Shown here: positions 4,224 to 45,740 of the stretch, piece by piece
Position numbering within the stretch: position 1 is the first letter of the stretch
Layout of the letters: every line of letters begins with the position of its first letter
DNA from: Ionaspis alba
Taxonomy: Eukaryota
Reading direction: 5' to 3'
Length of the DNA stretch: 45,740 nucleotides
Assembly (NCBI GenBank): GCA_964255285.1
Contig: CAXUUL010000052.1
Span: 1-45,740, forward strand
Made by a program: the position numbers and the translations under genes
The notes under the pieces: generated by a model
Database searches by the model: none
Told to the model about the DNA's origin: nothing
What the model saw: only the letters and a program-made list of their open reading frames with translations

Positions 4224-6146
4224 TCAGTATTTCTGCCACCGTTGCCAGGTACTGTGCGGCAGTCTTCCAGGCATAGTGACTTCCCGAGTCTGCCTCGTCG
4301 TTCTCAAGGCTGCGTCTCTCGAAGCTGACGCCCTCGGAGCCTCAATAGCTCCCGAACCTGACGCCTTCGAAGCCTTAGCAGCTCCCCGAGTCCTCTTCGT
4401 CGCTTTCGGAGCCACTTCTATCACATCCTCAGTATCATCCCTGTATCTCTTCGTCGCTTTCGGAGCCACTTCTATCTCATCTTCAGTAGCTCCCCGAGTG
4501 CTCTTCGTCGCTTTCGGAGCCACTACTATCTCATCCTCAGTATCATCGTTGTATCTCTTCTGGTTCTTTGCCAGCCTCGTCTTATTTCTCGCTCGAGTCT
4601 CAAGTTCCAGATTCCCCAAATGGCCCGCGACAGTGGAAGCGCCACTTCCTCTTTCTCTTGCCAGCATTTGAAACACTTTTGAATGTGCGAGCTTTGTGAG
4701 TGCTAGCCGGTGGGTCAGTCTCCCTTCGTAGGGACGATTAGGTAATGCGTAATGCGGGTAGTCATCGGGGATGTCGTGGTTCTTACACATCTGGATAAAA
4801 TCTTCAGCAGTGCCTACCTCGTACCGCGTACCCATCTTCATCTTGTTCTTCCCCCTCGGCTCGTTGGGAAGGTGGCGATCGTCCACTCTGACGTCGAGAT
4901 CCTGACAGAGTAGGGGAAAATCCAGAAATTTCTCAAGGCAGTAGAGGTGGACATAACCAGCATTGTGCTGAGGATCGTGGTTAGCATTCCTCCAGTTCTG
5001 CTCGTCAAACGCAACGCGATACTGCCCTTGATTGATACAATGGTACGACGCGACGCAATCCTCGAAACGGCAACGATTCGAGGTCGAGTGTGGGTATCTT
5101 CTAGCACTATCCGCCGGGTTGCGCTGAAGCCAAAGTGTCAAGTGACGTGGGTGTTGCCTCAAAAATTGCTCGATCTCGGGCACAGAGTAGAATCTTTTGT
5201 AATCAAGCTCGCCTTCCTTGGTATAATTGAAGCATGCCCAGCTTCTCGGGATGGCTGGTAGCGGAGTGTAGACCTCCTGAGGGTTGTAATTTCGGACATT
5301 TTCAGAGCGTTTGCTTGGACCTTTTACTAAATGGTTCCTGACCCAAGGCTTGGAAACATCAGTCGGCAGTGTTGACCGAATGTGGGGCAGCTCAATTGCC
5401 GATCCAGGAGGAGAGCTAGGCATGTCAGTCGGAAGCCTCGGTGGAGAGCTAGGCTCTTCATCCGTCAGGTCCGAGGACTCGTCGACTGCCTGCATCTTGT
5501 CGGTAGAGGGAGTTAGTGCGAGCTCCTCGGCACCGTTGTCATCTTTTGGTATTGGCGCGTAACGCCCTCGAGCTCCATGGAGCAGAAAGGTCGGGCTCGG
5601 TGCGCCGGGCGGAAAACGTTGAGGATTGTTCATTTGGAGGATAGTCGAAAGTCTGGAAGTTGGCAGTTGCTGCTGTACTTCATGACCAAACTGCTGCAAA
5701 AATCCATTATCAAGCGCACGTGAGGTCTCTTTGTTGAGGTCACGCAAGAATTCTTCATCATACTCACCGACAGCGGCTTCAAAAAGCTTGTCCTCCATTG
5801 GATATGGCCGTGATGTGTGGGGTCCCGGTTCTGGGTAGGAGACCTTGACGCTTTCGTTGACCTGAGGAACTCTTGGCGGAGACCAATTGTAAGGAGGAGT
5901 AGTATCTAATCCAAGCAGTCGCGCAATCTCCGAAATAGTAGGGCTAGGGGACCCCTTGGCGTGCTGTCGCGGTGGACTCCTCGTAAGATCAACCAAGTCC
6001 GGAAAGAACTCACTCGAAGCCTTCGAAGAGGGCGGATTAACTTTAGGGTCAGCTTCCTTTGCTTGTTGTGGAGGATCTCGTGGCTGGACGTCTTGCTCTA
6101 GCTCGTCAAAAAGGCTGTCAAGGTCGGTCATTTCGATATCTTGCAT
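4224..6146 (-). CDS. Hypothetical protein, 640 aa, intronless; disordered N-half, Cys/His-containing globular domain, repeat tail
   Basis: Uninterrupted 1923-nt ORF; central segment rich in W/Y/F/C/H (LTLWLQRNPADSARRYP..CRFEDC..QGQYRVAFDE..GYVHLYCLE). Confidence 0.8.
   Translation of the reverse strand: MQDIEMTDLDSLFDELEQDVQPRDPPQQAKEADPKVNPPSSKASSEFFPDLVDLTRSPPRQHAKGSPSPTISEIARLLGLDTTPPYNWSPPRVPQVNESVKVSYPEPGPHTSRPYPMEDKLFEAAVGEYDEEFLRDLNKETSRALDNGFLQQFGHEVQQQLPTSRLSTILQMNNPQRFPPGAPSPTFLLHGARGRYAPIPKDDNGAEELALTPSTDKMQAVDESSDLTDEEPSSPPRLPTDMPSSPPGSAIELPHIRSTLPTDVSKPWVRNHLVKGPSKRSENVRNYNPQEVYTPLPAIPRSWACFNYTKEGELDYKRFYSVPEIEQFLRQHPRHLTLWLQRNPADSARRYPHSTSNRCRFEDCVASYHCINQGQYRVAFDEQNWRNANHDPQHNAGYVHLYCLEKFLDFPLLCQDLDVRVDDRHLPNEPRGKNKMKMGTRYEVGTAEDFIQMCKNHDIPDDYPHYALPNRPYEGRLTHRLALTKLAHSKVFQMLARERGSGASTVAGHLGNLELETRARNKTRLAKNQKRYNDDTEDEIVVAPKATKSTRGATEDEIEVAPKATKRYRDDTEDVIEVAPKATKRTRGAAKASKASGSGAIEAPRASASRDAALRTTRQTREVTMPGRLPHSTWQRWQKY
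4381..4560. repeat. Coding tandem repeat, 54-bp unit x ~3.3, alternating A/B variants
   Basis: ctcttcgtcgctttcggagccact recurs at 54-bp spacing; protein KRYNDDTEDEIVVAPKAT / KSTRGATEDEIEVAPKAT / KRYRDDTEDVIEVAPKAT / KRTRGA. Confidence 0.92.
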
Positions 6147-8840: not shown

Positions 8841-9050
8841 TTGGATATGAGATCCGATCTCGTTGTGATGAGAGAAGGAGAAGAAGTGCGTTCTTNNNNN
8901 NNNNNNNNNNNNNNNNNNNNNNNNNNNNNNNNNNNNNNNNNNNNNNNNNNNNNNNNNNNNNNNNNNNNNNNNNNNNNNNNNNNNNNNNNNNNNNNTTGGA
9001 TATGAGATCCGATCTCGTTGTGATGAGAGAAGGAGAAGAAGTGCGTTCTT
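8841..9050. other. Scaffold gap (N 8896-8995) with identical 55-bp flanks
   Basis: 8841-8895 equals 8996-9050. Confidence 0.95.
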
Positions 9051-28243: not shown

Positions 28244-28453
28244 ATCAAATCGATGTTTCTAGCATCTTACACCATGAACAGCTGATTCATCTATGTGTNN
28301 NNNNNNNNNNNNNNNNNNNNNNNNNNNNNNNNNNNNNNNNNNNNNNNNNNNNNNNNNNNNNNNNNNNNNNNNNNNNNNNNNNNNNNNNNNNNNNNNNNAT
28401 CAAATCGATGTTTCTAGCATCTTACACCATGAACAGCTGATTCATCTATGTGT
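28244..28453. other. Scaffold gap (N 28299-28398) with identical 55-bp flanks
   Basis: 28244-28298 equals 28399-28453. Confidence 0.95.
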
Positions 28454-28958: not shown

Positions 28959-31900
28959 CTACTCCGCCTGCTGCTTTTGTTGCTGCTCTCTTTCGGCTAG
29001 AAGACGCTCTTCTTCTGCTTTGCGGAGAGCGACGATCTCGCCGTGGGGCATGCGATCGGGCTCATTCTTGAACCAGTCTGTTCGTTATGATTAGTCGTTG
29101 AACTCCTGTTCAAGCTGTCGATGAGAGCTTACTTGAGGAGCCGTGTGACTGGTTGGTCTCCAACAGCATCTGAGCGACGTGAACACTAAAAGAGAGATGT
29201 CAGTGTATGCTCAATTTGTCAAGCAATATTGTGCCAGATGGCTGACATACCCTTTGCCAAACTTCATCCCAATGTTCCTCATATTTCCCACCTGGTCAAA
29301 CTCCCAATTCTCCTCCAACCACTTCTTCTTCCACGCAAGATCCTTTTCCTCTCCAGTGCGGTAGGCGACATTCATGATGACCTTGCGAATCTCCCTTCGC
29401 CCACCAGCCTCATACTTGTTCTTATCTGGAGCCAAGAAGTCTGTCGCCCCCCAAGACACATATCCTTGGTCCAAGGAAGGAATGATGCGGTCCATCAGAG
29501 TCTTCCCAACACCCTGTTTGTACTGATCCGGGCGAACGTAGATCTGAAGCTCGGCGGTGTGTTGATACATTGAGTTCTTTCCCGCAAAATCTTCCGCAAA
29601 GGCAAAGCCGAGAATGGTCTCTTGGACCGCACTGAAAACCCTTTGTCCATTTCGTCCACCACGGCCATTGCCACGTCTGTTTCCGCGACCGTTGCCACCA
29701 CCATGAGTTTCACGACTTTTGGGAGGTTTGGAGCTCTTCGATACTGCCACAAGGAAGGCAAAGCTCTCATCGTCGACGCTCTGCAGACGATCAACCCAGT
29801 CGCTTTCGTCGGTCTTCTCAAGCTCACTGGCAAAGACGGTGTTCTCAATGTAGTGGTTGTAGATGTCAGTGATCTGTCTGACGTCCCAGCGGTCTGCTGA
29901 ACGAATGTAGATATTTGCATCGGGAACGTGTTCTTTGGCTATCACCGGTTTCTGTGAGTTCGACTTGATGTGGTCCTTTCGCACAGCGTCATGTGCAATT
30001 CTGGTGCGCTTGCTATCCTTGTGGTGTTTCTTGATGTAAGCCTTTGACGATGAGTGCGAGGTCTGGGTCATTCGTCCTTCAGCATGAGACCAAGGATCGT
30101 TCGGCGGGAGTTCCTCAGTAAGGTCCCAATTGACTGCGCCGTATTCGAGAGGGATCTTCCCCCAGATGCAGTCCTTAGGGTGATCCTGAAGCTGCTTTCG
30201 TGTGCCAGAAGCTGGGATGATTCCGGTTGCAAAACCAGGGCTCGAGGTATCAACTTTGAATGGTCGCTGGAGGGACTCCTTAACTTGCTTGTCCATCCAG
30301 CTCTCCATAAATCGGATGTGTCTTCTATCGTTATTAATGAACTGACCACGGGCATCCCACTCAACTGGTGCAGGCGCCCAGTCTCCGTCCCATCCAGCTA
30401 AGCCTCCAGCAGCCACCTCGTACTCCAATTTGTTCTTCGGATCTTCCGAAGTGACAGAAAATACGTCCTCATTGAACCACCTCCATGGATTGGCAGGCTT
30501 CTTGCGTGGCATTGGGGATTTGGATGAAGAGCCTCGGCCCGAGATTTCTGTGAGCATAGAATCTGAGTCGTTGTCGTTCAAAACTGGCTCAGGACGAGTC
30601 TCATCAGCTGCCAATTCGTGATCAAGCTGTGCAAGGGGTGCGACTTTGAATGTAGGGATTCCGGCAGCTGCTTCCGATATCTGCTGCTCATGAAGATTGT
30701 TGGGTGCCACAATCACGGGTGGGGTCGAGGTTACCTCTGCTCCGCGGGCGTGGGTGTGAGCGAGTTCCAGTTCTGCGGCATCTTTCTGCCCTTCGCGTAA
30801 AATCGTCGCTGTGTCCCGTTGAGGCTCAGCACGTGTCGGCTTTGGTCTATTCCTACGTCCCTCATAGATAGGTTCGGGCAGATTACGTAGATGCTCTGGA
30901 AGGAGGTGCCCAAATCTCTGTTCCAGCGACAATTTGACAGGTCCAACCTTCAGAGGCTTCGCAGCTTCTTGGGGATGATCAGGCACTGGCTGTTGAGGTG
31001 TCTGCTGCTTGTTGAGCGTACTCTGCGATCCTTCTTTCTGGCTAGAACCGATTTGAGCTTTGACTTCATTCGCTTTGCTAGATTCTCCATTTGAAATCTT
31101 GCCAGGATCTTGGACATGTAGTGCTAGCTCGCTGATCTTTCGCGCGTCGAACTGCGCCTGATTTTGTGCTTTGGTTCTCTTGGTAGTGCTAGACGACCTC
31201 GACGAATTTCCATCAGCGATTGGCTCCTCAGCTTTGACGACATCAGCCCAACGCAGATGAGGAGGGGTAGGCTTCTGCTCCACATCTGACTTAGCAATAG
31301 CATTGAGCGTCAGCTTGACCTTTCGTTCCGCCTTTGGTTGGACGTCGTGTTCAATCTTTGCCTTGAGCATTGGCTCTGTCATGACCTCGATGTTTGGTTG
31401 AGCTGTGACTTCGAGCATTGGCTCCGTCTTGACCTCGATCTTGGGTTCAGCTGTAATCTCGAGCATTGACGGAGGCTTCGGCTCAGCAGCCACTTCAGCC
31501 TTTGACGTGATGACCTGCTCAGTTTTCAAATTGACTGTTGGCTCGGTCTTCAACTTGACTGCGTCGTCAGGCTTCTGCTCAACTTTCTCTTTAGCCTCAC
31601 GCTCAAGCTTCAGCTGACGCTTCTGCTTTTTCGTTTGTTTGGGTTTCCACTCCGATTTCAGCTCGAGTCTAAGCATTTTCACTGGCTCAGTGTTCGGCTC
31701 GAGCTTCTGCTCGACCTTGGGCTCAATCTTTGCCTCAGCTTGCTGCTTGACCTGCTGCTCCATTTTGACCTCACTCTTCTCGGTCCATCGTAGGTGGGGA
31801 GGGACGTAGTTAGCCTTATCAGGACGCGCTGGCTGCTGGAGCAGCTTGTTGCGCAACGCGTTGTTTTCGCCGAGTGCCACAGGATTTGATCCAGTGAAGA

Positions 31901-33849: not shown

Positions 33850-33949
33850 NNNNNNNNNNNNNNNNNNNNNNNNNNNNNNNNNNNNNNNNNNNNNNNNNNN
33901 NNNNNNNNNNNNNNNNNNNNNNNNNNNNNNNNNNNNNNNNNNNNNNNNN
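33850..33949. other. Scaffold gap without flank duplication (true missing sequence) in the divergent GNAT/ARL2 promoter
   Basis: 100 N; the flanks differ from each other. Confidence 0.9.
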
Positions 33950-35227: not shown

Positions 35228-38200
35228 ATGATTGAAGAGGACGGTTCAGAGGACGTCAATGACTTCCTGCAGCGAATACGGGAACTGGGTGACAAGCGGG
35301 ACAAGGAGGATGAAGAGCGCACGCGCAAGCTCGAGGAAGAGATTCTGCAGGGCAGAAAGGAGAGACAAGCTCGCCGAGCAGGTCAGGGCCTTGAACCACA
35401 ACTGGCGAAAGACGCATGTTTGCGCTAACACGTTTGGCATGAAGAGCGCGCTAGGTCAATATCTCCCACGAAAGACTCGCCTTCAAATGCCGGAACTCCC
35501 TCCTCAGTTCATACTATGACAGATACGCCGACACATCAGAGCTTCCTTCGAGGTTCCATTGATTCTCTACAGCCATCTCCGTCTATAGCCATGGATCGCG
35601 GCGAGGATAACGTGCAGTCAACCGGCGTTCCCAATACTCGAAGTGAGATGTCTAGAGAAAGAAACACAACCCGAGCGCTACACGATTCTCAGCTAGGTCT
35701 CAAATCTAGTCCGACACCCAGTGCTGCGATGCCGTCGCGCTCTGGAACACTCTCATGGCAGCAGCGCCCAACCTCCAGAGGTTCAACCAGTGCAAAGAGC
35801 CGGCCACTCTCTATGGGCGCGTCTGAGAACAGCGCAATGAGGTCTCCACGCGCAACACCCGGCCCTACGCCTTTGGATGTAAAGGAGAAGGAGAAGGAAT
35901 TGTCAAGAGACCAGATATCACACTCTTTGGCTTCAAAAGATCCTACTTGGTTCCGACAAACAGCGGATCGAGGTGCGGGCTCAGCTGCGTATCGGAAAAA
36001 CAAGGAAGATGATAGCTCAAATACAACTTCGTTGACTGGAAGTGTACGCTTACCTGGCTTCTCGCGTGAGTCCACAGTTGAGCCTGAAAAGGAGCATATT
36101 GTGCGACCCGAAAGTGTTCGTTCATCATCCCCCTCTCGAGATGACTCAGTACGAGGTAGCAGTGCCTGGAGTCAAAGATTTTCGAGTACTGCATCTTCAT
36201 CTTCTACAAACCCGGTTGGCTCTCCTCTCCCAACGTTGAGCTCTCAGCGACTCGAACCTCCCTCATCAGACACAACGTCTTCTAAATCAATCGAGAACAC
36301 GATTTCACGAAGCCCCGCTATGTCGCCGTCTCAAGGTCGCATCTCTCCTGAACGGATGGAGCGGCCAGTGTCACCTACTAAAGGTCTGGGAGGGTTCGTC
36401 CAAAGCGCTATGCTGAAACGTTCAGACAGTGTCAATAAGAGATGGAGTGCTCAAGCTGGTACTGGGCTGAGCCGAGGGAACTCAATTGCAAGCAATCGAA
36501 GCGGATACGATGGTGGTTTAAACGCGCTCAGTGGTGTAGGTTTGAGTCGCGAAACCTCTCCCATCGCCAGTTCGCGGCCTGGATCAAGCCACAGCAACGC
36601 CACGGTTACTCAGCGCGAAAAGTCCTGGGAATATGACAAAGTGACAGCTGCTGAAGCTTCTACGAAAGATGGGTTCGTAAAACCAGCTCTTCCTGTCCAC
36701 TCTCGTGCTCGTCAGAATACTTCGAACGATCTACAGAGCTCCAGTGGAGACACCCTTGACAGCAGCCCCCCATCAAGTCCAAGCAAGACGACAGAAGCCA
36801 AGAAATGGAGTCCCACAAAAGCCAGCTGGCTTGAAAGCGCGATTAACAAGCCAGACTCTCCCAAGCCAAAAGCTCCAGCTCCAAATCAACCTAGCTGGAT
36901 GGCCGATATTAACAAAGCTAAGACATTACGAGGCAGCGTGGACTTGGGAAAGTCTACAAGCTTTAAGGAAGTATCTACTGGTGGCTTACTCAGATCACCT
37001 CCAATGGGTACTACTTCAAAATCGCCAAGTCTTGGAAGTCTTGGAAGTCTTGTCAGCCCATCTGCGACTACATTATCGAAAGTCAAAGGGCCGGATATGC
37101 CGAGTGATACGAATTCCCGCGTAAAGCCAGATGCCCAGGACGATAGTGATTCCACATTGCCCGATATACAGAAATTACATTCGCCTTTAGAGCACGGCAA
37201 AAGCTCATCAAGGACTACAGCGGGAGAGTTGGGTCCTTCGTCCGAATCAATCGAGCCTCCCAAAATTGAGAACCTTGCCAGCGAGCGGTCACCAAAATCC
37301 CCACCCATTCTGAAGCCCAAGCCAATCACGCCCACGAAAAAAGACTTTAGATCTACATTGAAACCACGACAAATTTCCAGTGATAATGAAAAGAGTGCTG
37401 AGCCCGAGTTCAAGAACGTCTTTGGGAAATTGAAACGGACAGAGACAAAGAACTACGTTGCACCAGATGAACTCAAGAATAATATCCTGAGAGGCAAAGC
37501 CGGTCTCGCGGTCACCGGCGGACCTAAGAAGACTGAGAGGAAAGATGAGTTTAAGGAGAGTATCTTAAAGAAGAAAGAAGAGATGAAAGTTGGGATTTCT
37601 TCTAATGCAACGCGCAAGACTAGCAATAGCAGTCTTAATAGTGCTCAAGACTCACCAGCTCCAGAAGCAATCGCCAAAAGAAATGACCTGATAAGACCAG
37701 AGAGTGCTCTCGGTAATCGCAGTATTAGCACGGATACGTCGTCTGTGCCAGCAGCTACTGAGCTGGCATCCCGACAATCGAGTCTAATCGATAAACCTAA
37801 GCTTGAGCTACCAGAGAAAAAGACTAGCGCTCCTGCCCGTCTGCAAAAAGAGTCTGCAACGGGTGGAAAGCTAGCAGATCGATTCAACCCTGCCTTGGCT
37901 GGCCTTCTGCAGCGTGGGCCATCTCCGTTGACTGGTGGCGTTGCCCCCCTGCGAACGATGAGTCCCGTTAATTTCAAGGACGAAAACCAGACATCAGCGC
38001 CAGTCGCATACCACAATAGTGCTTCCGATCCTCCACAACAACTTACTCATGCCACAAAAGCTAGAGCTCGTGGCCCTAAGCGACGTCCTCCCACGTCTAC
38101 GAATACCGACAACGAAAACACCCAACCATATTCCGTCTCAGAGTCAACCTCTCCACAGCATCTGTCCCCTTCGCTCGATATTCCCAAAATAACGAAGCTA

Positions 38201-40241
38201 TCCTCTCCTCACGCTGAAGACGCAGCTTCGGTTCGGGACCCACTTCCAATGCCATTATCCAACATCACTAATAACAGTAACAAGACAATACAAGCTAAAT
38301 CACCCGCGAAATCTAGCAGTCCGACCAAGCGTTCGGCCTCCATTGAAGCCAAGCATATAGAAAATAGTGGTTCTTCGTCGCCCAAAGCGGCATTCTCCCC
38401 TCAGCAAAGGTCTCCATCAATCACGAAAGGAAAATCCGCGAAAAGTCCTCGAGCTCCGGGAGTGCGAAAGCCCTCGGCTAGTGTCGTCAAACCTTCAAAT
38501 ACTGCATCTCCATCGATCGCCACAGAAGCCAAAGCAGAATCTAGTAGTCCAAGTCGTGAGACCATGGGTACACCCAAAGCTCAAATGTTGGAAAAAGAAG
38601 CAAAGGCTGTATCTGTTGCTAGTGCTGCAGCTCATTGGAGAACCTCAGCAACAACAGAGATACAACCTGCGCCACGAGCAAGATCCCCGATCAAGTTGCC
38701 TACGCGACATGACGAGGAGGCTGCCACGAGAGAAGCTGGTCTGCCTGACCGAGATGCTCAGAGTCCAATTGGTTTGGGTATCGATTCTATGTCTTTAGGA
38801 CCTTCACCGAAAGCCACTAGATCTCCTCCTCCGCCTGCCAAGAAGCCAGAATCCATAGCCCATCGAGTTGTCTCAACCACTGCGCTACCCACACCTCCTC
38901 AGCAAACCGTCGAGTCTCCAACCGTCGCAAATTCAGATGCCAGTCGCATTCTCCGCAAATTCTTCGGTGAGAACCTCGCAACCAAAGTCAAACTCGATGT
39001 CGACGCGCAACCAATCCTCGCCTCCCGAGGCACCAACCTCGACTCTGGCAAGATCAAAACCTTACGAAAACAAATCTGGGAAGTCAGCGAGTCTGGCAAG
39101 CGCCTCCCCATCCCCTCACATCAAGAGCACATCCTCTTCGAAGAAAGCCTCTACCTCTGCACGCACGTCTTCGGCACCGCCAGCGGTAAGCGCACCACGG
39201 AAGTCTACCTCTGGTGCGGTGACGGCGTGTCCCCACCCGCTATCGAAGACGCTCAACTCTTCTCCAAAACAGCCGCCAAAGAAGCCGGTGGCAAGCTCAT
39301 CATCTTAGCTCAGGGTAAAGAAACCTCCAACTTCTTTGAAGCACTCGGCGGCATCGTGATCACGCGCCGCGGATCCAGCAGCCGCTTTAGCTCCTCTGCT
39401 GGCGCTGCTGCAACCTATATGCTCTGTGGCCGCCGCCACATGGGCCAGATCGCCTTCGACGAAGTCGATTTCTCACCCGCCAGTCTCTGCAGCGGCTTCC
39501 CCTACATCGTGTCCGCAACCTCGGGGCGGCTCTACCTATGGAAAGGCCGTGGCTCCGGTGCGGACGAGCTAGGCTGTGCGCGTCTCATTGGCATGGATCT
39601 AGGCCTGACCGGCGAGATCGAAGAAGTGGATGAGGGCAAGGAGCCTCCCGCGTTTTGGCAGGCTTTCCCTGGCGCACCGAAAGCTGTGGATATGCCTCAG
39701 GGGCACTGGCATCTGAAGCCCGGGTGCGAGAAATACACCACCAGGCTCTTTGCGCTTGAGATGGAGGGACGGCCGAAGTCGAGCTCGAGCTTTATTTGGG
39801 GGAGGAGGGGTAGTGCGCCAGCGTTGGATGATTCATTAACGGCGCAGGTGAGGGAGGTTGTGCCGTTTACGCAGAAGGATTTGAGTGCTGAGGGCGTGTT
39901 TGTGCTGGATGCTTTCTTCGAGATTTACATGTGAGTCTTCCCATCCTTCGCGCATCTTGGGTATGGTTATGCTGATCGTTATCAGAATTGTTGGTGCTGC
40001 TGCCATTTCTAAATTGCCCAACTTCCGTGCTGCGCTGCTTTTTGCGCAGGAGTATGGGATTCTGGCTGCTTCGATGGAGGATCGACCGTTCGTGCCTGTA
40101 AGTACCGTTGTACTAGAGGGAGTGCCGGCTATTGTGAAGAGTGTGTTTCGGAAATGGGACGATAGAAAAGTCGTGACGCGGGAGAGCGGAGACCTGGTTG
40201 TCGTGCTACTGAATTCGGCGGTAGAAGCTACAGGCGGGTAA
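35228..40241 (+). CDS. Gelsolin/villin-repeat protein with long disordered N-terminus (DUF4045-type); exons 35228-35381, 35445-39930, ~39986-40241
   Basis: N-terminal DFLQRIRELG..DEERTRKLEEEI, PTKGLGGFVQSA and SWLESA motifs; C-terminal gelsolin-like repeats (VYLWCG..QGKE..FF, LYLWKG..EGKEPPAFW, DL..EGVFVLD). Confidence 0.88.
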
Positions 40242-40396
40242 TGAGTATGGTCTTACATGATCTATCAGAGACACATAGTTTCTTCGCTCTACTTTTCTTG
40301 TATATATTTAGGGGTGTGCTGGATAAGGGGTGGGCCGGCCATGGTGTTATTCGCAGGAGAGGCAGCATTGGGTGTGGGAGTGATCGTTCTGTATAA

Positions 40397-40606
40397 CATT
40401 GATAGGATACACGGATCATAGTTCTGTTTCCACGGTGCATTGCGAGACTCTNNNNNNNNNNNNNNNNNNNNNNNNNNNNNNNNNNNNNNNNNNNNNNNNN
40501 NNNNNNNNNNNNNNNNNNNNNNNNNNNNNNNNNNNNNNNNNNNNNNNNNNNCATTGATAGGATACACGGATCATAGTTCTGTTTCCACGGTGCATTGCGA
40601 GACTCT
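40397..40606. other. Scaffold gap (N 40452-40551) with identical 55-bp flanks
   Basis: 40397-40451 equals 40552-40606. Confidence 0.95.
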
Positions 40607-40777
40607 AGCGTTCTACACAATGCCCATCAGGCGCTGGGGTGGCATGACTCCAGATGTGATAACTTTGAGGTAGGCGAATTACTGTCCAGGAGGTCGCCGA
40701 CGGCGTCAAAAGGAGCAAATCCCAATAACGATCCTTGCCCGCATTATTTTGGCAGATAAGGAGTAGAAGGAATCATG

Positions 40778-41250
40778 GCATGATATATCATGATCGGCAG
40801 GCTCAAGATATGATATCGAGGAGGGCACCACATTGTCAAACGTATTGCGAGTATGACATAGATCATGTGACACCAACTGAACAGTAAAGAAAACAGAAGT
40901 TGACAGCATATCATGCTTCGCAAGCCAGAGATGTGATATCTAGGAGGCCGCCCACTGTGCACCATCCAGCTGTAAGACAAACGCTGGTCATGTGACCTCA
41001 CCAGGGATGATAATCACTGATAGAGGTTGCATCATTTTATATTCTGCATGCCCAAGATCTGATATCCAGGTCTCCTTGGTCGTCAACAAAAGGACAGCTC
41101 CGACGCAAATCTTATGACACCAGCACGGAAGGCAATGGCAGTAGGTCTGTAGTCATATCACGTCTTCCCAGTCCAAGATATGCTAATCAGGAGGGCGCCT
41201 GTCATACCGCAAATCTGTAACTCACACACCAATCATGTGACTCAGGCGAA
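40778..41250. repeat. Diverged non-coding tandem array, 4 units of ~121-126 bp with conserved motif blocks
   Basis: AGATNTG(A/C)TA block at 40806, 40929, 41055, 41176; TCATGTGAC-like block at 40863, 40988, 41110, 41233; CATATCA-like block at 40784, 40907, 41033, 41154. Confidence 0.85.
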
Positions 41251-41436
41251 AAAGGCAATGAAGAAAAAGGGCTTGCAAAGATATCAATATGTCTTTCCGC
41301 TCTTCTCTTATCAAGTCCGCAACTACCTTCACGCTCCAGGACCTATGTTACACAGCCATTTTCCATCCACCCCAAACTCCACCGCTATGTATGCAACAGA
41401 ACCCCTTCCGACCCCAATTCTACTCAACTGACGCAT

Positions 41437-44024
41437 TTACTCGCCATCAGTATCTGTATCCGTATCCGTATCGCTCGTTTCCTCCGCCTCTCCCTCTGTA
41501 TCACTCTCATCACTATCGCTCTCCGCCGCCCGCACCTTCTTCGGCTTCTTCGCCGTTGTGGGCGAGCTCATGCCGCCCGACTTGAGCATATTCATCTGGC
41601 CCGCAAGAGAATCTGTACCAAACCCGCATTAGCCATAATCCCTCACAATCAAGCCTTAGACGCAAAGGCTCATAAAGCTATGGCAAATGAGTCAACTCAC
41701 CCTCATCCGGCTCACTAATTTCCTCCTCCTCACTAATCCAATCCGCCTTCTCCGCATCCTCAACCACCAACGTCGCCTCCTGCCGACTATCCATCCCAAT
41801 GTACGAATCACACACTAGATGAAAGACAAATGTGTAACTGCCCGGCTGTGGCGGTGCCTGGAATTGCAGTTTCATCGTCTGCATGTTGAAAGTCGGCCTC
41901 CCCGAATCGTCGAAAATAGGTTTGGCGAAAGTGGTGATGATAGAGGGAGGAACGGCGACTCGATTCTGCTTGCTCTCGCCCAGGAACATGTGCCACCGAG
42001 GTGAATGGTCGCGCGCGAAGTAGGGAGCGAAAGCTAGAGGTGGAGCGACAGGATTATCGTCTGCGGCTGCCGATGGTATGGTCCCCTCGGCGTTCTTGGC
42101 CCTCGAGTTCTTGTGAGGTTTCCGCCCGAGTAGTGCATCCATGTCGCCCTCATCGGGATCGATGTCCTCGAGATCGAGCTCGTTGACTTCGGGAACATTT
42201 GCCGTTCCTGGGGGAACGACACGGGCTTTGGTGACGAATTGGACCAAGCTGCCGGGAACAATATGCTTCTCACCCATAACTTTGAAGAAGATCTTTTCGA
42301 CTTTGAGGAGAGGGATCTGCCGTGCGACGGCAACGGCATCGTTGTATTGTTGAGGAGTAAGCGTGCCGGGTTGGTCGGTGGCGAGCTTTCGACGCTGATA
42401 TTCGGGCATGGCCATGAATTGTTGGATGGTGAGGTGTTTCCGTGCGCTTTTGCCTTCGATGACTTGGGCGATGGAGTGCGTTATATATGGGAGCTGGAGG
42501 AGTGGTGAGGACTTCGGCGGAATGGTTTGCATTATGTACTGCGAGGCTCGGTAGGCGCTGAGGAGGGGAGCCAAGGAGCCATGGGCGAGGCAGATGGCTA
42601 TGAAGGATTCGTTCATGGCCAGTGCGAGCGGCGCGATTTCGTACTTCTCTGTCAGAGCGTCAGTTTTGTTTTCCTCGAAAAGACTTCATGACGGCTCACC
42701 ATCGTCTAGGGCAGGATCGCCAAGGTTTACTCGACCCAGATAAGCCCATAACAGAGCCAAGGTCTTTCTACGTGTTCCTTCGAGCTCTTCGATCTGTTCT
42801 CGGTCCTTCGCAGATAAACCAGCAGCCGTAACAGTGACTTTACCGTCTTGGAAGATTGCTTTCTCAAGCTTTTCGAGACCAGTATCAGCCCTGCCTCCCT
42901 TCAGAACTCCTTCGAACTCCTCTCCGCTGCTTAAAGCACCTAGGACACCACCATCTGAGATATCTTCTTTGTATTCCTTGAACAGTTTACCAGCACTTGC
43001 GACCAAAACCTTCTCTTTCGTCATTTTTTGAGTACCATNNNNNNNNNNNNNNNNNNNNNNNNNNNNNNNNNNNNNNNNNNNNNNNNNNNNNNNNNNNNNN
43101 NNNNNNNNNNNNNNNNNNNNNNNNNNNNNNNNNNNNNNAGTTTACCAGCACTTGCGACCAAAACCTTCTCTTTCGTCATTTTTTGAGTACCATACCACCA
43201 TTTTCCAACTACGTATGGCAGAAGAACACCAAGGAGCAAGCCGTAGACCATCAAGACGTATTTCCCGTTGCCATCCGTTATGATGAATTTCGGAAGCGCT
43301 ATCCCAATACTGAAACTTTGCTTCCCGTCTGGATGCCCAAACTGTATGTAGTTGTTCCGCACTTCCTCGTCCGTCAGGGCCTTGTAGGCTTTGCTGATCT
43401 CAACATAACGCGCCGTTGCATCTTCGACAGTCTGATTCTCCGCAAGCTTGACTTTATCGGGATGGTAGAGTAGCGTGAGTTTTCTATAGCGTGATTTGAT
43501 AGTCTTCTCGCTGGCGGACTGCATTCCGTGTCAGCACATACCTCAGCAAGTTTGGGAACGACCAATTCCCGCACCCTCGATATCTCTAATATGTTATAGG
43601 GATCCCAGATTTTTGGTATCGTCCTCGCAGTCACCATGATCAAATAGACCATCCACGCCATGATTAGGTATCCTGTAACAACTGTGATAAACCGCTTCAA
43701 TCTCCTTTCTCTTCGCCATTGTTTCCTCTTCTGCCCCTGTATTAGGTCTTCGTCTTTCGGCTTGAAATCAGTCTTTATCCGCGGCGCTGTATTCTCGAGC
43801 TCTGGATGGTTGTCAGTAACAGGTAATTCCGCGGTTCTGATAGTGACTTTGTTAAGCAGACCTTTGCTTGGCTTGAGGAGGGAGTATGTGAGCGGGAGGG
43901 TGACCAGGCCGGTGATGGTGAGGATGAAGAAGGGAAAGAATTGGCCCTGTAGAGGTCAGTCCATGCTCTCGTCTCTCATGTAGTCTTCACACACCTGCTC
44001 ATCGTAATTATAGTCTGTAGACAT
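41437..44024 (-). CDS. SEC63: ER translocon subunit Sec63 (J-domain + Sec63/Brl domain), multi-exon, crossing an artefactual gap
   Basis: MSTDYNYDEQ|GQFFPFFILT, WDPYNIL, J-domain YHPDK, FGHPDGKQSFSIGIALP, APYFARDHSPRW, CDSYIGMD, acidic tail ..DTDTDTDTDGE*. Confidence 0.96.
42984..43193. other. Scaffold gap (N 43039-43138) with identical 55-bp flanks inside SEC63
   Basis: 42984-43038 equals 43139-43193; collapsing the duplicate restores WWYGTQKMTKEKVLVASAGKLFKEY. Confidence 0.95.
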
Positions 44025-44958
44025 TTTGCACGGCGGCTAGTGACAGTTGAAGCACAAAGCGAGTTCCCAGGAACGAATGCGCGGGGACGCGTTGAGCTGG
44101 TAGGACAGAATTAAATATGGAGGACAGTAAGCCAGATCATGAGTTAACAGATCATGCAGAATAGCTGAAGAGGGTCTGCAGGCACAGATATAAATTTATT
44201 ATTGCTCAGCCTCCATCTACAACACAGTCCGGGCGGCCGTTCGACATGTGTCCTTAAATATTTCTTGGCCTCTATGCTTGATCCGGCTAGCTGATTCGCT
44301 AAAACAAAGGGCTACAACGGTGTTGACAAGGTGCTTATCGTTACACTTTATGATGGAATCACATAGATAGAGACACACATAAGATGTAACATTATAGATT
44401 GGAGGGTGCCTAGAGTCCGCCAGGTATGTAATTCCAATCCACAATCGCAACCGGGACCTTCAGCGCACACATGTCCAGCAATCGACAAACGCGAGTAAAT
44501 TCCCTTTCCTTCAACCCATCAAGTCCTCCTTTCCTTCCTTTTCTCTCATCAGCGAGCTCCAGCAGTCCCGTCACTTGTCCTCCTAAGTCGGAACCGCGAG
44601 CACACAGCTGCATCTACACCATTTTTGTCCCATTTTCCTCCGCACGAGTGGGATACTAGAGTCCAATGGGTTCAGACAATAGACTAATCCTCCTCCTTTC
44701 GTCCTCCAACCCAACCGAGTTGTAGTATTCCCAGGGGCGATCTGCTTCGAGTCGAGTCTTCACATGTTCCATGCCTCTGCTTCAGGGATCGGTAAATGTA
44801 GACTCGATTGTTGTTGATGTCATCAAGACATGTCTGTGTAATAGCCAACAGCATTCCAAATGAATGGCGAACATGCGCCAAGCAGTAGCGCAAGGTATCC
44901 CAAAGTTCATGTCGTTTGCGACGCCAGTAAAGTGTCAGAGACCAAACTCCTCCAACTC

Positions 44959-45312
44959 CTAGGGCTCGATAAAATCAAGACCCCCAAAATATTCCATCAT
45001 CTTAACGCACAATCCTTCATCTTCTTCTCCACCTTCGCTTGCCTCGCCAAAGATCCGGCGCTTTTCCAATTCCAGTTTCTCGGCCTCCTCTCGTTGTCTG
45101 CGCTCTCGCACTTGCCAGGCCACGTATCGATTGTGCCAGTGACGGGCCGAGACTCCGTTACGTCGGCTAGAACCGGAGGGCGGAGATGGCATCGATGCAA
45201 GATCACGGGATCCTGCGACCGTGTCTATAGGATGGTCAAAGGTGCCTGGTTTGACCGGCATACCGGAAGCTTTGTGGCTACCGCGGGTGCGGCGTCTATT
45301 GTGTCTGCTCAT
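44959..45312 (-). CDS. Small hypothetical protein, 117 aa
   Basis: ATG in good context after a pyrimidine-rich leader; basic N-terminus, charged helix (RERRQREEAEKLELEKRRIFG), acidic patch. No family recognised. Confidence 0.6.
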   Translation of the reverse strand: MSRHNRRRTRGSHKASGMPVKPGTFDHPIDTVAGSRDLASMPSPPSGSSRRNGVSARHWHNRYVAWQVRERRQREEAEKLELEKRRIFGEASEGGEEDEGLCVKMMEYFGGLDFIEP

Positions 45313-45740
45313 GCTTGGTCATGCGACAGTAGATAGAAAGTAAAGAAAGGCTGGGAAAAGAATGATTGATCGATCCGGAGAAGGATGAAGGGAATGCATC
45401 GTGACCAGTAAGGGGGGGGCATTATATAGACATTGCTTGGGGGGTTATGTGTCATCATGTGATGACCCATAATCACGAAACATAGGATGAATGTTTCTCT
45501 GTTCTCTGAGTCATTCATGTGACAGCAAGAAGCAAGTTTGGATCATAAAGTGGATTGCGACAAAATGATTCGCCACCGCGTGACTCACAAAACGAACTTC
45601 GCTTCCGAACTCGGATATCGCCCAGTGACATAGCCGAGTTCTAGACCAAGTAACTCGTGATGGAGGGCTCGATAAGTCCCAGATACTTGTCAACCATCAC
45701 TAGAATGCTCTTCGATATTGGTCGCAACAAAATATGAGCA

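Follow-up and report, generated by a model that had tools for sequence, protein, structure and literature searches.

CDEI sites are found at budding-yeast centromeres and in MET gene promoters. In the budding-yeast centromere, CDEI is adjoined by CDEII, a segment of about 80 bp with an A+T content above 90%, and CDEIII has a CCGAA core. The subterminal regions of some DNA transposons contain units of about 100 bp, which are repeated in tandem and share short conserved motifs. In fungal polycistronic or intron-hosted snoRNA clusters, units of about 120 nt contain short kept boxes with variable stretches between them. Diverged intergenic minisatellites are composed of near-equal, non-coding units, which are arranged head to tail at a single locus. 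Roadblock terminators, at which a DNA-bound general regulatory factor (Reb1, Rap1 or Abf1) halts Pol II, are known as single sites. The sequence RTCACRTG is described as the Cbf1 site at CDEI and in certain promoters in one report (PMC10516642). In another report, the oligonucleotide with the Cbf1p binding site contains the 10-mer ATCATGTGAC, and Cbf1p sites give a subtle, weak accumulation of Pol II, which is less than that at Reb1p, Rap1p and Abf1p sites (PMC5052057).

We analyzed 45,740 nucleotides of Ionaspis alba DNA (assembly GCA_964255285.1, contig CAXUUL010000052.1, positions 1 to 45,740, forward strand), and this whole stretch is called the window hereafter. Judged by its intron signals and gene content, the window probably derives from the draft assembly of a filamentous fungus. 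As shown in Table 1, four head-to-tail units of 124, 125, 122 and 122 bp, which span 40770-41262, are present between two convergent genes. The array goes back to an old tandem duplication, in which a non-coding segment of about 123 bp was multiplied four-fold, and it is found at a single locus so far. A tandem repeat or minisatellite has two or more units, each 10 to a few hundred bp long, which are arranged head to tail, and the array belongs to this class. A 26-nt block, which forms one repeat family, occurs in every unit with spacings of 123, 126 and 121 bp, and its second, third and fourth copies share 77, 65 and 81% identity, respectively, with the first copy. The MAFFT alignment of the four units comprises 126 columns, of which 32 are invariant. 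In unit 3, the E-box is broken to ATCTTATGAC and the AGGAGG box is lost. The block identity of this unit is 67%, as compared with 77-81% among the other units. The sequence-only reading had described four units with the same spacings, had named the third as the most degenerate, and had listed the motif blocks; the repeat search and the alignment agree with this description, and CATATCATG, the 26-nt block and ATCATGTGAC were all located in the units.

It should be mentioned that none of the 23 rows given by TRF for the window falls on the array, because the units are too diverged (their identity is below the range of TRF). The 19-nt core AGATATGATATCNAGGAGG, with up to three mismatches, occurs three times, always within the array, while 0.07 occurrences are expected by chance and none of 100 shuffled sequences reached three. 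TRF did report tandem repeats at 4316-4560 (33/54 bp) and 31361-31773 (24/36/48 bp); they have matches of 78-84% and appear to be in-frame repeats within the coding sequence of other genes.

Table 1. Positions of the array, its motif blocks and the neighbouring features in the Ionaspis alba window
Feature	Position	Strand	Basis
Gelsolin-repeat gene (DUF7904 and Gelsolin repeat)	35429..40241	+	Pfam domains, ORFs, sequence
Assembly artefact (55-nt exact duplicate and 100 N)	40397..40551 (N at 40452-40551)		Run X1 contig joins 40396 to 40552
Unit 1	40770..40893		MAFFT; nhmmer unit profile recovers 40772-40890, by construction
Unit 2	40894..41018		MAFFT, nhmmer unit profile
Unit 3 (most degenerate)	41019..41140		Repeat search, MAFFT, block identities
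Unit 4	41141..41262		MAFFT, nhmmer unit profile
Block A0, CATATCATG type	40784..40792; also 40907-40915, 41033-41041, 41154-41162		MAFFT, RNAalifold
Block A, unit 1, CAAGATATGATATCGAGGAGGGCACC	40804..40829; copies 40927-40952, 41053-41078, 41174-41199		Repeat family
Block B, unit 1, ATCATGTGAC, Cbf1/CDEI-type E-box	40862..40871	GTCACATG on - strand	RTCACRTG match
Block B, copies	40987-40996 (GTCATGTGAC); 41109-41118 (ATCTTATGAC, broken); 41232-41241		Motif search
SEC63 homologue (DnaJ and Sec63 Brl domains)	41437..43955	-	ORFs, Pfam domains

Open reading frames and Pfam domains verify that the array is located downstream of both the gelsolin gene (+) and SEC63 (-), as had been claimed from the sequence. 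The gelsolin-repeat gene possesses one intron at approximately 39932-39985, the borders of which were read from the sequence, and its stop codon is TAA (40239-40241). From the stop codon of SEC63, the distance is 175 bp to the end of unit 4 and 187 bp to position 41250. The spacer on the gelsolin side contains a duplicated segment with a run of N, which is an assembly artefact, because a run X1 contig joins its two sides directly. When this artefact is removed, the array starts about 380 bp from the stop codon of the gelsolin-repeat gene. Therefore, the true stop-to-stop distance is about 1040 bp, and the gap hides no units.

The window contains five runs of exactly 100 N (8896-8995, 28299-28398, 33850-33949, 40452-40551 and 43039-43138). 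Four of them are flanked by a 55-nt exact direct duplicate with a spacing of 155 bp; the run at 33850 is not among these four. Contigs from run X1 bridge two N runs, the one beside the array and another one, where 42983 is joined to 43139. The N runs with their duplicates are scaffolding artefacts, namely unmerged k-mer overlaps, and a false 155-bp insertion has thereby been placed in SEC63 and in the intergenic spacer. Run X1 also includes minor variants: a G is inserted behind 40881 (depth 28 of 105) and three bases are missing at 41249 (depth 29 of 99). Both indels are just outside copies of block B. Moreover, the main contig of this run differs from the window at four positions in 41331-41368. 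These variants suggest a second haplotype or strain in the sample. Runs X2 and X3 are from other organisms and, when compared at 80% likeness, cover coding pieces only, so that the array is uncovered and these runs have no bearing on its conservation. In run X2, contigs of low depth (about 3) are identical to the window in 38500-45000, and a 27-kb contig with a depth of 17.7 matches only the coding parts of SEC63, with many differences. Run X2 thus seems to contain the organism of the window, or a near-identical one, at low abundance beside a more distant relative.

Three blocks are kept in the units: CATATCATG (block A0), the 26-nt CAAGATnTGATATCnAGGAGGGCGCC (block A) and ATCATGTGAC (block B). 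Block A contains a GATATC palindrome and a purine/GC box, and GATATC is present in three of the four units (only at 40812, 40935 and 41061). The CATATC of block A0 is inverted relative to GATATG in block A, and the two make up a dyad of 6 bp whose arms are 17 nt apart; 22 of the 24 cells pair, with no compensatory changes. In the MAFFT alignment of block A, no 3-nt period was seen among the variable columns. In their form, the motifs resemble sites for DNA-binding proteins more than signals in RNA or coding sequence: GATATC is palindromic, CATATC and GATATG form a dyad, and the flanks of the E-box in TCATGTGA are symmetric. The symmetry of block A would suit a dimeric DNA-binding protein, and the block was matched to no known factor. 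The distances from block A to block B are 58, 60, 56 and 58 bp, and those from block B to the next block A are 65, 66 and 65 bp. Thus, the two main blocks do alternate about every 60 bp, as the sequence-only reading had stated. This spacing is held within 1-4 bp although the intervening sequence is near saturation, a soft argument whose weight depends on the indel rate.

The minus strand of block B, GTCACATG, is the form that matches RTCACRTG. The match to the Cbf1/CDEI consensus, which had been proposed for the array E-box, was found in three of the four units (40864, 40989 and 41234, all on the - strand) and is broken in unit 3. The exact 10-mer ATCATGTGAC is present in units 1 and 4. Since a single duplication gave rise to these three matches, they are not independent. 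In the window as a whole, RTCACRTG shows no enrichment, with 7 occurrences against an expectation of 6.1 and at least 7 in 40 of 100 shuffled sequences. As compared with the known sites of Cbf1-type bHLH-zipper proteins, the array is alike in that three of its four units carry GTCACATG and units 1 and 4 carry ATCATGTGAC. In contrast, the array sites are downstream of both neighbours and not in a promoter or a centromere. A perfect TGACTCA heptamer (41238-41244), which is an AP-1/Gcn4-type site, overlaps the E-box of unit 4; at this place the other units have TGACACC or TGACCTC. Two more E-boxes of the same type are present near the end of the window, 60 bp apart, at 45454-45463 (ATCATGTGAT) and 45514-45523 (TTCATGTGAC). 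The former is within the palindrome TCATCATGTGATGA. Neither of them shows further similarity to the array units when compared by the unit profile. The consensus of the fungal bZIP site is ATGRYRYCAT, and ATGATATC was considered as a site of this type and dropped, since only 8 of 10 positions agree by eye.

The CDEI matches in three units raised the comparison with a point centromere, and a centromere-like site had been among the earlier suggestions. This comparison fails at the other elements. The segments before and after the E-box are 47-62% A+T, neither CCGAA nor TTCGG occurs within 40778-41250, and both the AT-rich CDEII and CDEIII are absent. A point centromere is therefore not supported.

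The sequence-only reading had also taken the blocky conservation as a sign of selection rather than uniform decay. Identity between units is 67-81% in the three blocks (47 columns) and 31-49% in the other 79 columns, while 26% is expected from composition alone. The alignment columns were shuffled 10,000 times, and this permutation gave p of about 0.001 for the lag-1 autocorrelation and p of 0.0003 or less for the variance of window means. Because column permutation ignores alignment anchoring, we added a simulation of uniform decay, in which 400 four-unit families were generated on a star tree with the same aligned identity (0.51) and passed through the same MAFFT step. Nine correlated statistics were compared with this simulation; the blocks themselves had been defined after looking at the data. 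Among the nine, the variance of 10-column means was the best, with 5 of 400 simulations as extreme as the array. The corresponding numbers were 7 for the variance of 26-column means, 9 for the lag-1 autocorrelation and 9 for the best 10-column window. For the best 26-column window, the lowest 10-column window and the lowest 26-column window, 21, 28 and 44 simulations, respectively, were as extreme. Thus, the clustering of identity exceeds uniform decay modestly, at approximately the 1-5% level and in four paralogues only. The blocky pattern stands in this sense (5-9 of 400 in the four best statistics), at a modest strength. We infer from it that the blocks may be under selection.

We considered whether the blocks could be coding or splicing signals. 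No stop-to-stop open reading frame across the array is longer than 89 amino acids, none of the four open reading frames over the array matches Pfam at E≤1, and no convincing open reading frame was found after removal of the gap artefact. These results rule out a coding relic. In units 1 and 2, blocks A and B are in different frames, and for these two units the earlier remark that no single frame carries both blocks is correct. Block B resembles a branch point followed by a 3′ splice site (TGAC...AG). This candidate was rejected: it needs introns of 29-34 nt, and unit 3 has no GT upstream. Introns of about 54 and 88 nt were recognized in the flanking genes. A RIP signature was not found in the array (TA/AT, 0.52; (CA+TG)/(AC+GT), 1.65).

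We tentatively favour the idea that the kept blocks are a lineage-restricted, homotypic cluster of protein-binding DNA sites at fixed spacing. Under this proposal, most of each unit would have drifted to near random sequence, while three motifs and the distances between them would have been kept. The first motif would be the Cbf1/MiT-type E-box TCATGTGAC of block B, to which a Cbf1-type bHLH-zipper protein may bind. The second would be the GATATC palindrome followed by AGGAGGGCGCC, so that block A may be bound by another, probably dimeric, factor. The third would be CATATC, which makes the dyad with GATATG 17 nt away. In this way, four evenly spaced complexes might be loaded between the two converging transcription units, and they could act as a downstream enhancer, as the promoter of an unannotated transcript, or as a barrier that slows read-through polymerases. 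Here we infer protein binding, and any effect on transcription, from the form and arrangement of the motifs. Several facts stand against the proposal. Conservation does not extend to every unit, since both the E-box and the AGGAGG box are lost in unit 3. Clusters of transcription-factor sites are not usually located downstream of both neighbouring genes, as this one would be. Moreover, only four sequences are available, all of them paralogues, and no second array was found in the window or in the metagenome, viral and prokaryote collections.

Nearly as likely is a neutral explanation, in which the array is a minisatellite in decay: an intergenic stretch of 123 bp would have been multiplied four-fold by replication slippage or unequal exchange and would have drifted since then without a function. 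The blocks would then reflect chance, local differences in mutation rate, patches of gene conversion or alignment anchoring. The array has the near-equal head-to-tail units, the non-coding nature and the single locus of a diverged intergenic minisatellite, and it has eroding edges and one eroding unit. There are only four units, which are too diverged for TRF, and unit 3 has already lost two of three blocks. Possible vestigial units at the edges, although non-significant, fit an array that is eroding from its ends; one is at 40648-40665 (E 2.2), and a weak resemblance was seen in the alignment at about 41280-41325. Neither a homologue nor a second locus was found in the window or in the metagenome, viral and prokaryote collections. 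Furthermore, the spacers are not fully saturated because non-block columns keep residual identity in some pairs (49% in units 3 and 4; 44% in units 1 and 3), and the evidence for constraint is only at p of about 0.01-0.05 when the nine correlated statistics are allowed for. Against this explanation, gene conversion would give patches specific to particular pairs, but all or most units keep the same blocks. The clustering is above the uniform-decay null in 391-395 of 400 simulations for four statistics, and the spacing varies by only 1-4 bp despite heavy substitution. In a minisatellite, identity would be spread evenly, whereas that of the array sits in three short blocks at fixed spacing; the array also has only four units and is old enough to escape TRF. 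We consider it unlikely that the array acts as RNA, either in a long 3′ UTR of SEC63 (-) or of the gelsolin-repeat gene (+), or as an independent non-coding RNA, with the blocks as sites for RNA-binding proteins or as processing signals that give unit-length RNAs. Transcripts could reach the array, given the distances of 175 bp and about 380 bp from the two stop codons, and on the + strand three changes in the sole consensus hairpin, CATATC/GATATG, can be accommodated by G-U wobble pairs. However, no Rfam match was found at E≤10 over 39500-42000 or at the gathering score in the whole window. The predicted fold of 40760-41270 (511 nt) is no better than those of dinucleotide shuffles (MFE z, +0.50 on the + strand and +1.83 on the - strand). 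RNAalifold gave only the 6-bp hairpin on the + strand (-1.5 kcal/mol; 0 of 6 pairs compensatory), with an uninformative shuffle control, and nothing coherent on the - strand (2 of 10 pairs with a double change and 5 of 10 broken in one unit); this covariation test has low power with four paralogous sequences. ARAGORN detected no tRNA. In 40560-41440, both strands were scanned for RUGAUGA and CUGA boxes 45-130 nt apart, with one C-box mismatch allowed and a terminal stem of at least 4 bp. One pair (41007/41059) was found, without a terminal stem, while four are needed. Splice-signal readings also require introns shorter than those in the flanking genes. Thus, the array shares with snoRNA clusters the unit length of about 120 nt, the short kept boxes and the variable stretches between them, but it is without C/D pairs closed by a stem, an Rfam match, and a stable or conserved fold. 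The repeat-spacer precursor of non-coding RNAs, which had been suggested from the sequence, accordingly finds no support in the Rfam, folding, compensatory-change, C/D and tRNA results.

It is very improbable, in our judgement, that the array is the relic of a mobile element (a DNA transposon or MITE), in which the units would have been subterminal repeats or an internal satellite. An 18-nt inverted match to block B is present at 40248-40265, as such an origin might leave. This match is at chance level (blastn E 1.0) and is missed by the unit profile; it was therefore also rejected as an extra unit. The inverted pairs around the array are only 15-18 nt long, again at chance level, and no terminal inverted repeats were found. 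The depth of run X1 is 111-117 over the array and about 97 in the flanks, and the excess is partly due to the minor variant contigs (about 28), so that the array looks single-copy. No transposase or other Pfam domain is encoded in the open reading frames of the array, no further copy of the array is present in the 45-kb window, and the missing RIP signature also argues against a mobile element. A match to the subterminal repeats of a known transposon or MITE had been named as the outcome that would speak against a functional array; the single-copy depth and the lack of terminal inverted repeats point away from it, within the scope of the 45-kb window and the depth of run X1. In the 45.7-kb window, the four-unit profile detected only the four array units, the candidate fifth unit upstream at 40648-40665 was discarded as not significant, and outside the array, blastn found no match in the window with an E value better than 0.083. 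We then used the gapped pattern GATATCNAGGAGGN{30,48}TCATGTGAC, which joins blocks A and B. In metagenome contigs, four single matches and no array were found; the unit profile gave them 5.0-9.4 bits over the forced part, and they show no likeness to the units beyond the forced letters. The viral contigs gave 0 matches. In prokaryote genomes, three single matches were found, which is the chance level (about 5 estimated for 596 Gb). A literature search on the 10-mer ATCATGTGAC and on minisatellites of filamentous fungi gave no such array among the matches listed, which is not proof of absence.

Within the proposal of a cluster of protein-binding sites, a more specific form can be described, which we regard as quite unlikely. 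In this form, the array would be a phased platform under selection, on which a Cbf1-type dimer at the E-box and a second dimer at GATATC/AGGAGGGCGCC would be bound about 60 bp apart. The platform would constitute a barrier of about 500 bp between the two converging genes, coated with protein, that may halt read-through polymerases or position cohesin-type complexes. Its possible barrier position between converging units is similar to that of the roadblock terminators. In contrast to the known roadblocks, which are single sites, this array has four units; furthermore, in the report cited above, the general regulatory factors block Pol II much more strongly than Cbf1p does (PMC5052057). If the platform were real, a filamentous fungus would have an intergenic insulator or roadblock of the array type, in which a centromere-type E-box is used outside any centromere.

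The meaning of the array depends on whether the blocks are selected. The finding is to be taken as a lead and not as a discovery in itself. If the blocks are not selected, the array is one more decaying minisatellite. If they are, it would provide a compact example from nature of composite transcription-factor sites at even intervals between convergent 3′ ends, through which one could study how converging transcription units are kept separate in compact fungal genomes.
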